The notes under the pieces are model-generated. The model was not told the DNA's origin and did not search any database. It saw only the letters and a list, made by a program, of their open reading frames with translations. A stretch of DNA of 64,000 bases from the NCBI GenBank assembly GCA_013288885.1, contig JABDBA010000001.1, forward strand, positions 467,840 to 531,839, written 5' to 3'. Every line of letters starts with the position of its first letter. Within the stretch, counting starts at the first letter, position 1. The stretch is from Gammaproteobacteria bacterium (lineage in GTDB: Bacteria > Pseudomonadota > Gammaproteobacteria > JABDBA01). Of this stretch, positions 30,746 to 30,855 are shown piece after piece. The translations under genes and the position numbers were made by a program.

Positions 30746-30777
30746 AGTATACCCAGCCAACCTTAAGGTTTTATTAA
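30746..30777 (-). promoter_or_regulatory. PmrA-type box plus -10 for protein C gene
   Basis: The reverse complement reads TTCTTAATAAAACCTTAAGGTTGGCTGGGTATACT. It has the same TTAA-N7-TTAA-N11-TATACT geometry as 19839-19870 and sits 38 nt upstream of the ATG. Confidence 0.6.
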
Positions 30778-30823
30778 GAAAGCGCACTATTATAGAAAAT
30801 ATTTTTCAAAATAGATGTAAGAT

Positions 30824-30855
30824 TTAAGGTTTCCTTAATAATCACCTGTCATAAT
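30824..30855 (+). promoter_or_regulatory. PmrA-type box plus -10 for the pilus-like operon
   Basis: tTTAAggtt-tc-cTTAATaat, then N11, then CATAAT (30850-55), about 95 nt upstream of the 30950 ATG. Confidence 0.5.

Follow-up and report, generated by a model that had tools for sequence, protein, structure and literature searches.

Putative back-to-back PmrA-type promoters between a type IVb-like filament operon and an orphan gene of an uncultured Legionellales bacterium

Described PmrA promoters and the divergent spacer

The pmra-box was defined in Salmonella as the hexamers CTTAAG and XTTAAT, 5 bp apart, and in Klebsiella as CTTAAT/CCTAAG. It is bound head-to-tail by the dimer of phosphorylated PmrA and overlaps the -35 region, and a structure of the activation complex solved by cryo-electron microscopy exists. 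PmrA activates approx. 40 effector genes in Legionella pneumophila, and in Coxiella burnetii at least 68 promoters carry a PmrA site, five dot/icm operons included. A type IVB secretion system (T4BSS) is present in almost all Legionellales, and the signal of PmrB in Coxiella is lysosomal amino acids. In case of the Legionella type II secretion system (T2SS), the substrate genes celA, chiA, legP, map as well as nttA were reported to be modulated by PmrA/PmrB, and the apparatus genes were not. Here we describe a 64-kb stretch of DNA (64,000 nucleotides, referred to below as the window) in which a spacer at 30709-30949 carries two PmrA-type boxes back to back, one of them facing an orphan gene and the other an eight-gene operon for a type IV filament machine.

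The spacer is 241 bp long and separates the start codon of the orphan protein C (ATG at 30708, minus strand) from that of the first operon gene, which encodes an ATPase (ATG at 30950, plus strand). The box facing the gene of protein C, which has 922 amino acids (aa), lies together with its -10 element at 30746-30777 on the minus strand and reads, from 30777 to 30746, TTAA-TAAAACC-TTAA-GGTTGGCTGGG-TATACT. Its hexamers are CTTAAT (30773-30778) and CTTAAG (30762-30767), the -10 hexamer is TATACT (30746-30751), and its position-weight-matrix score (39.8) was the highest in the window. The operon-facing box and -10 element at 30824-30855 of the plus strand read TTAA-GGTTTCC-TTAA-TAATCACCTGT-CATAAT, with the hexamers TTTAAG (30823-30828) and CTTAAT (30834-30839) and the -10 hexamer CATAAT (30850-30855). 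A third box with its -10 was detected at 19839-19870 on the plus strand (CTTAAT at 19838-19843, CTTAAG at 19849-19854 and TATACT at 19865-19870), 55 nt upstream of an open reading frame (ORF) of 1502 aa. Every box of the window consists of two YTTAAK hexamers in direct repeat with 5 bp between them, the flanking base being counted to the hexamer. The distance from the second hexamer to the -10 element is 10 bp at all three sites and at all the orthologous sites described below, and the three boxes are found 38-95 nt upstream of a start codon, each on the correct strand. A previous sequence-only reading of this DNA had proposed the two boxes of the spacer with the common pattern TTAA-N7-TTAA-N11-(T/C)ATA(C/A)T, and its geometry, strands and coordinates were exact; it had included neither the third box nor the conservation throughout the lineage.

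In order to obtain expected counts, 100 dinucleotide shuffles of the whole window were used. The full pattern, TTAA-N7-TTAA-N11-YATAMT, was found three times against 0.01 expected and none of the 100 shuffles reached three, and the bare TTAA-N7-TTAA core was found 11 times against 6.0 expected, which is not significant. Since the bare core is not enriched, the signal consists of the core together with the correctly spaced -10 element and the placement upstream of genes. A consensus scan of the spacer for sigma-70 promoters with both -35 and -10 elements found none, as against 1.5 expected, and this absence is what activator-dependent promoters lead one to expect. If the -10 hexamer is set at -12 to -7, the box covers approx. 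-39 to -23, i.e. the class II position of PhoB and PmrA. The Rfam search of the window gave only a tRNA, thus the spacer is not explained by a riboswitch or a small RNA. The boxes at 19839 and 30746 are nearly identical over a 33-nt core (TTCTTAATAAAACCTTAAGGTTGGsTGkGTAT). The two flanks cannot be aligned, and the proteins encoded downstream are unrelated to each other, which indicates that the shared core is a regulatory element; for the same reason a duplication as the origin of the two boxes was rejected.

Comparison with the described promoters supports the designation of these sites as PmrA-type, which the sequence-only reading had used. The sequence features of a pmra-box were found, namely the pair of hexamers with a 5-bp gap as in the published definition, the replacement of the -35 element at a fixed distance from the -10, and conservation at orthologous promoters. 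The sites resemble the enterobacterial pmra-box (in Salmonella, Klebsiella and E. coli, at the promoters of pbgP, ugd and pmrCAB) in that a pair of hexamers with 5 bp between them overlaps the -35 element or stands in its place; the enteric box, however, is located, on our reading, approx. 2 bp nearer to the -10 than here, the enteric regulon serves lipopolysaccharide modification, and the signals sensed are Fe3+ and low pH in the enterics and amino acids in case of the Coxiella PmrB. The PmrA-dependent promoters of L. pneumophila and C. burnetii are said to have been treated by Zusman et al. in 2007 and by Beare et al. in 2014. With the Legionella and Coxiella promoters the sites share the taxonomic order, the tandem TTAA repeat just upstream of the -10 element, and a box type which precedes secretion-apparatus operons and genes that are domain-less or eukaryotic-like. 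They differ from them in their target, which here is an operon for a type IVb-like filament, and in the half-site, which is predominantly CTTAAGGTT here and TTAATATT in L. pneumophila.

A TTAA-N7-TTAA site at -35 is also the one from which CtrA activates pilA in Caulobacter crescentus, where an OmpR-family regulator likewise controls a type IV filament gene. A box of this kind at a pilus gene is therefore not unprecedented as a type, although the Caulobacter case belongs to an alphaproteobacterial cell-cycle circuit with another regulator and to the Tad/Cpa class of pili. The closest named relatives of the RpoD encoded in the window (GC content approx. 41%) are those of Rickettsiella species and Ca. 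Aquirickettsiella, at approx. 67% identity, and no alphaproteobacterial protein was among the best matches. These relatives place the organism in the Legionellales, as an uncultured Coxiellaceae-like member of this order.

Conservation in related loci and in metagenomes

The ATPase of the operon has thousands of metagenomic homologues, the best 120 of which share 57-71% identity with it, and one carries the label Legionellales. A search of genome contigs with the ATPase gave only one locus (L002), the others were reached by protein search and contig look-ups. Ten loci, designated by L numbers, were fetched, and in those with the same operon the ATPases are 59-71% identical to that of the window. 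The eight-gene operon is retained in L003-L006, L125, L126 and L128, and it is incomplete in L002, where the locus is cut short.

In each of the nine loci with a divergent gene (the window, L002-L006, L125, L126 and L128), this gene is faced by a box of the same geometry. When L129 is added to these nine, an ATPase-facing box was found in seven of ten, i.e. in the window, L002, L003, L004, L005, L128 and L129. The ATPase-facing boxes of the related loci have scores of 34.6-40.3 and good -10 hexamers, and none of the five closest relatives whose operon is complete lacks one. Across the loci the length of the spacer varies between 88 and 434 bp and the gap between the boxes between 5 and 207 bp, the unconstrained bases differ, and the spacers of orthologous loci could not be aligned outside the boxes. 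The probability of a chance match, scaled from the shuffle rate of the window, is approx. 5e-5 per 300-bp spacer. Compared with this rate, the recurrence of the boxes at orthologous loci indicates selection on the motif.

Some further box-like sites were noticed in the related loci. In L005 (12311-12342), L006 (12263-12294), L126 (12269-12300) and L128 (8224-8255) the platform gene contains a weaker box of the PmrA type whose -10 element is good, the first pilin gene being approx. 340 nt further downstream. L006 and L126 are loci without an ATPase-facing box, and no equivalent of this site was found in the window. It may be an internal pilin promoter. L006 has another box, TTAAGTTTCTCTTAATAATCAGCTGTTATACT, at 21502-21533 on the minus strand, which is very like the operon-facing box of the window and is situated upstream of a 165-aa gene without Pfam match, 10 kb downstream of the operon. 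In L127, where the ATPase homologue is an orphan gene, TTAATATTTATTTAATATT-N7-TACAAT was observed at 3180-3211 (minus strand) upstream of a 360-aa ORF without Pfam match; it resembles the TTAATATT-type PmrA repeat of L. pneumophila.

The same promoter type was sought in metagenomes with the pattern TTAA-N6-CTTAAGGTT-N7-TANANT, which was found in at least 117 stretches; the counts given here refer to the matches listed. Only five of 121 matches fall inside long ORFs, and an ORF of at least 50 aa begins within 150 nt downstream in 100 of the 111 matches that have at least 300 nt of downstream sequence. Of 115 unique sites, 100 have C or T directly before the first TTAA and 109 have G or T directly after it. 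Since these positions were unspecified in the pattern, their bias rebuilds the YTTAAK hexamer in the metagenome sites. The fifth position of the -10 is A or C in 92 of the 115 sites, and the median GC content of the contigs is 0.40. DotD is encoded by two of the 90 first downstream ORFs, and one of these heads an operon of dotD, dotC (T4SS_TraI family) and a dotB-like ATPase gene, with 70 nt between box and gene. The other first downstream genes include three encoding ankyrin-repeat proteins, two RCC1-like, one with an Lcl_C domain and two of the thermostable-haemolysin family, and the majority have no Pfam domain. The matches at dotD, ankyrin and RCC1-like genes come from low-GC metagenome contigs other than the genome of the window, and the match set is taxonomically mixed. 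By analogy, this mix of downstream genes resembles the PmrA regulon of Coxiella and Legionella. An autoregulation of pmrA through the box was also considered; the regulator genes found behind the metagenome boxes are not PmrA-like and were rejected as evidence for it.

Regulation of the two promoters

In view of the above, both divergent promoters are probably activated, in the class II manner, by the PmrA orthologue of the lineage. The host belongs to the Legionellales, thus the regulator is most likely an orthologue of the Legionella and Coxiella PmrA. In the proposed mechanism the spacer would contain two divergent activator-dependent sigma-70 promoters, in which the YTTAAK repeat replaces the -35 element. 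A phosphorylated dimer of the PmrA-type regulator (OmpR/PhoB family) would bind each box head-to-tail at -35 and would recruit or position the sigma-70 RNA polymerase, provided that the effect is activation and not repression. Since the two sites are centred approx. 61 bp apart and do not overlap, each promoter would have its own dimer, and the 922-aa gene would be transcribed leftward and the eight-gene filament operon rightward. The predicted starts are approx. 30739 on the minus strand, with a leader of approx. 31 nt, and approx. 30862 on the plus strand, with a leader of approx. 88 nt. The third copy of the promoter would drive the 1502-aa ORF 11 kb away, and one signal would raise all three transcripts.

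Several observations weigh against the PmrA reading. In the 64-kb window no response regulator, histidine kinase, pmrA/pmrB or dot/icm gene was identified, so the assignment to PmrA rests on the type of the motif and on taxonomy. Among the metagenome matches listed, which are of mixed taxonomy, approx. 10% of the contigs have a GC content above 0.52, and seven response-regulator genes are located behind boxes, one of them VanR-type, the others closest to the Thermotoga DrrD and none PmrA-like. This indicates that other regulators use similar sites and that the motif is not unique to PmrA. The boxes could thus be class II activator sites for another regulator of the OmpR/PhoB family, either a lineage-specific paralogue or a QseB-like protein with specificity for TTAA repeats; the PmrA of C. 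burnetii was itself originally annotated as QseB. We consider this unlikely, since the same promoter type precedes the dotD-dotC-dotB-like operon and the ankyrin and RCC1-like genes, which matches the PmrA regulon, and since the hexamers and their spacing fit the definition of the PmrA box. The assignment to CtrA, with which the core motif, its promoter position and the link to a pilus gene agree completely, is hardly conceivable in a host whose RpoD is gammaproteobacterial and closest to Rickettsiella, the more so as the YTTAAK hexamers fit PmrA boxes. CtrA is not known outside the Alphaproteobacteria.

The remaining doubts concern the operon-facing box, which has the lowest matrix score of the three boxes of the window (28.5) and C at the first position of its -10 hexamer; in L006, L125 and L126, three of the ten loci, no ATPase-facing box was found. 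In the 5' leader of the operon, downstream of this box, an extended -10 motif, TGGTAATGT, is located at 30887-30895 on the plus strand, and TGNTAATRT is found at the equivalent place of the leader in five loci (the window, L002 at 254, L003 at 8499, L004 at 5507 and L128 at 5958). As judged from its sequence, this conserved motif may be a second, possibly constitutive, promoter of the operon and could allow its transcription independently of PmrA. One could then suppose that only the box facing the divergent gene works, that the operon-facing box is weak or vestigial with the operon transcribed mainly from the extended -10, and that co-regulation is weak or absent; the sites inside the platform gene of L005, L006, L126 and L128 would suggest that the point of regulatory input has moved during evolution. 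However, a box of exact geometry faces the ATPase in seven of the ten loci, with the high scores of the related loci and the low rate of chance matches given above, and we regard a vestigial box as improbable, somewhat more so than the action of another regulator. It is very improbable that the boxes have no regulatory role at all, being chance occurrences in AT-rich DNA or remnants of dispersed repeats. The lack of enrichment of the bare core and the presence of a 54-nt palindrome family with five copies in the window would suit such an origin, but the three occurrences of the full pattern against 0.01 expected, the recurrence of the boxes at orthologous sites of approx. ten independent genomes, where unconstrained bases differ, the similarity of two window copies that stops at the edges of the 33-nt core, and the 100 of 111 listed metagenome matches located just upstream of an ORF all argue against it.

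The prediction of the sequence-only reading that one type of response regulator controls both the filament operon and its neighbouring gene is well supported as far as the sequence goes; the reservation applies to the operon side, with the weakest box, its absence from three loci and the possible second promoter. The same reading had known of no description of this link for a pilus-type cluster. Full-text literature searches turned up nothing on a filament or T2SS apparatus operon being controlled by PmrA in the Legionellales. CtrA and pilA are a precedent for the motif type. The promoter type itself is established, as is, for PmrA in Legionella and Coxiella, the control of a secretion apparatus and of its effectors by a single regulator. 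The type IVb-like filament operon as a target, and the back-to-back layout conserved across uncultured Legionellales, appear to be new. What results is a solid, testable prediction, useful for the mining of effectors in metagenomic Legionellales, and not a new mechanism.

The filament operon, its neighbours and their meaning

The operon comprises eight genes on the plus strand (30950-40603) with intergenic gaps of -13 to 37 nt. It begins with the assembly ATPase of the GspE/PilB superfamily (534 aa, 30950-32554, Pfam T2SSE) and the inner-membrane platform protein of the T2SSF family (349 aa, 32558-33607, Pfam T2SSF). Three prepilin-like genes follow at 33645-35709 (144, 214 and 333 aa), each with a Pfam N_methyl match, and with the class III signal motifs G/ISLLE, G/ISLLE and G/FTLLE. 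The secretin (539 aa, 35713-37332, Pfam Secretin) has the lipobox LAAC and is of the type IVb PilN/BfpB kind. The last two genes (37329-40603) encode a 412-aa protein without family match, for which no match was found in the PDB either, and a protein of 672 aa that carries a SPOR domain at its C-terminus, both conserved in the related loci. The genes after the operon are icd, clpB and rpoD.

All the components by which the type IV filament superfamily is recognized are present, i.e. the ATPase, the polytopic platform protein, the class III prepilins and the secretin. The secretin scored 236.9 bits with the NCBIfam model of the PilN family (TIGR02520, cut-off 287.65), and its closest solved relative in the PDB is BfpB (E=3.8e-28). 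The ATPase is closest to GspE rather than to BfpD and remained far under every NCBIfam equivalog cut-off; the scores and cut-offs in bits were 267/630 for GspE, 87/424 for GspF and 59/351 for GspD. GspL and GspM were not found and the sole GspC-like match had 19 bits in NCBIfam; the operon contains neither a prepilin peptidase nor a retraction ATPase, and a bundlin-type pilin was not found. Since the equivalog cut-offs were missed and GspL and GspM were not found, the identity as a canonical T2SS (Gsp) or a type IVa pilus was rejected. Because the secretin is PilN/BfpB-like with a lipobox and the ATPase is far under the equivalog cut-offs, the operon encodes, by its gene content, a type IV filament machine leaning towards type IVb. 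The lipobox secretin and the compact operon with ATPase, platform protein and prepilins are shared with type IVb pili such as the bundle-forming pilus of enteropathogenic E. coli (BfpB) and the R64 thin pilus (PilN). The system differs from these in the lack of a prepilin peptidase or retraction ATPase in the operon, in the ATPase being nearer to GspE than to BfpD, and in the 412-aa and SPOR-domain genes, which have no recognisable counterpart.

On the left side of the spacer there are three large ORFs of 922, 1084 and 1502 aa, all of them without Pfam match. Protein C (27940-30708, minus strand) is an orphan: Pfam, NCBIfam and the PDB gave no match, and a search of 5.8 billion protein clusters gave no homologue at E<=1e-5. 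An obvious Sec signal peptide is lacking, and Ser, Thr and Gly are abundant at its C-terminus. Its gene has an AGGAG ribosome-binding site upstream, its own promoter and a terminator-like hairpin downstream (27877-27912). The 1502-aa ORF (19925-24433, plus strand) stands behind the third box, and in case of the 1084-aa ORF (24440-27694, minus strand) no PmrA-type box was found upstream. A domain of approx. 100-140 aa occurs in three copies in the 1084-aa ORF and once near the C-terminus of the 1502-aa ORF, with 37-52% identity. Protein C and the 1502-aa ORF are candidate Dot/Icm effectors, on the indirect traits of a PmrA-type promoter, the absence of a Pfam domain, of homologues and of an obvious signal peptide, and a C-terminus with many small polar residues.

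In the window and the related loci the divergent genes are mostly large and domain-less (922, 849, 1426, 1630, 1803, 1967 and 5715 aa, and one of 155 aa), and the proteins of different loci are not homologous to one another. At their N-termini an obvious Sec signal peptide was not seen, and Ser, Thr, Ala and Pro are abundant at several of the C-termini. Their role as cognate substrates or partners of the filament machine was rejected, since they are non-homologous between loci and have no obvious Sec signal. Between L006 and L126, which show synteny on either side and 82% identity of their ATPases, the divergent proteins have nothing in common. This looks like a site at which unrelated genes, each with its own PmrA-type promoter, get exchanged, and suggests a gene-replacement hot spot. 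Such an exchange fits fast-evolving effector genes, without being a proof of them. The slots at 4284-9695 of L006, 5497-9777 of L126 and 1-5566 of L128 were seen to hold unrelated giant ORFs, listed as 1803, 1426 and 5715 aa, respectively.

Several other features of the window were recorded. A 799-aa ankyrin-repeat protein is encoded at 11984-14383 and fits the lifestyle of a Coxiellaceae-like member of the Legionellales. A weak or half site, AATAGGCTTTCTTAAGGTTAATCTGGTACAAT, is located at 62682-62713 on the minus strand, 40 nt upstream of a 378-aa ORF without Pfam match; its first hexamer is degenerate, with an intact second hexamer, spacing and -10, the matrix score is 14.9, and it may be a fourth, weaker target. 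Two adjacent genes for LuxR-type regulators with a GerE domain (55073-55954 and 56025-56816, plus strand) stand directly upstream of a gene for a 1136-aa LVIVD-repeat protein (56946-60356, plus strand). Effector genes in Legionella were recently reported to be under regulators of the LuxR type. Toxin-antitoxin or defence-like genes (NYN, Bro-N, PemK/MazF, an AbiEii-like AAA_21 ATPase and PIN) are found at 3067-6061, 14490-14945 and 47212-49571, possibly as mobile or defence islets, and the tRNA is at 46659-46732, just after rpoD. The perfect palindrome of 54 nt, GGTGCCACGTCTGGAATAAGGAATAACGTTATTCCTTATTCCAGACGTGGCACC, is present in five copies with 0-2 mismatches in the last 12 kb of the window (52624-52677, 54851-54904, 60366-60419, 61471-61524 and 62742-62795). 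The copies are at or just beyond gene ends, beside ORFs without Pfam match, and the palindrome looks like an element of the repetitive extragenic palindrome or miniature inverted-repeat transposable element kind, or a family of bidirectional terminators.

In Legionella and Coxiella, Dot/Icm-dependent virulence has PmrA as its master switch, and the known direct targets of PmrA are the type IVB apparatus and effector genes. With a conserved PmrA-type promoter at the filament operon, this regulon would gain a second surface machine. Since the layout recurs in related genomes, the virulence regulon which is known in the Legionellales for its control of Dot/Icm secretion probably includes the pilus machine. 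A wider picture, which we offer tentatively and on balance rather doubt, is that the type IVb-like filament is widespread in uncultured Coxiellaceae-like Legionellales as a core member of the PmrA regulon, co-induced with Dot/Icm substrates when the host compartment is sensed, and that the divergent slot is a hot spot swapping unrelated, often giant (849-5715 aa) genes with their own PmrA boxes. If this were true, the filament would be a second organelle of host interaction, for adhesion, entry or secretion into the vacuole, under the same circuit as the type IVB system. The signature YTTAAK-N5-CTTAAG-N10-TAnAMT would serve for the prediction of virulence-regulon genes in Legionellales known from metagenomes only, and would flag orphan and giant ORFs as candidate effectors.

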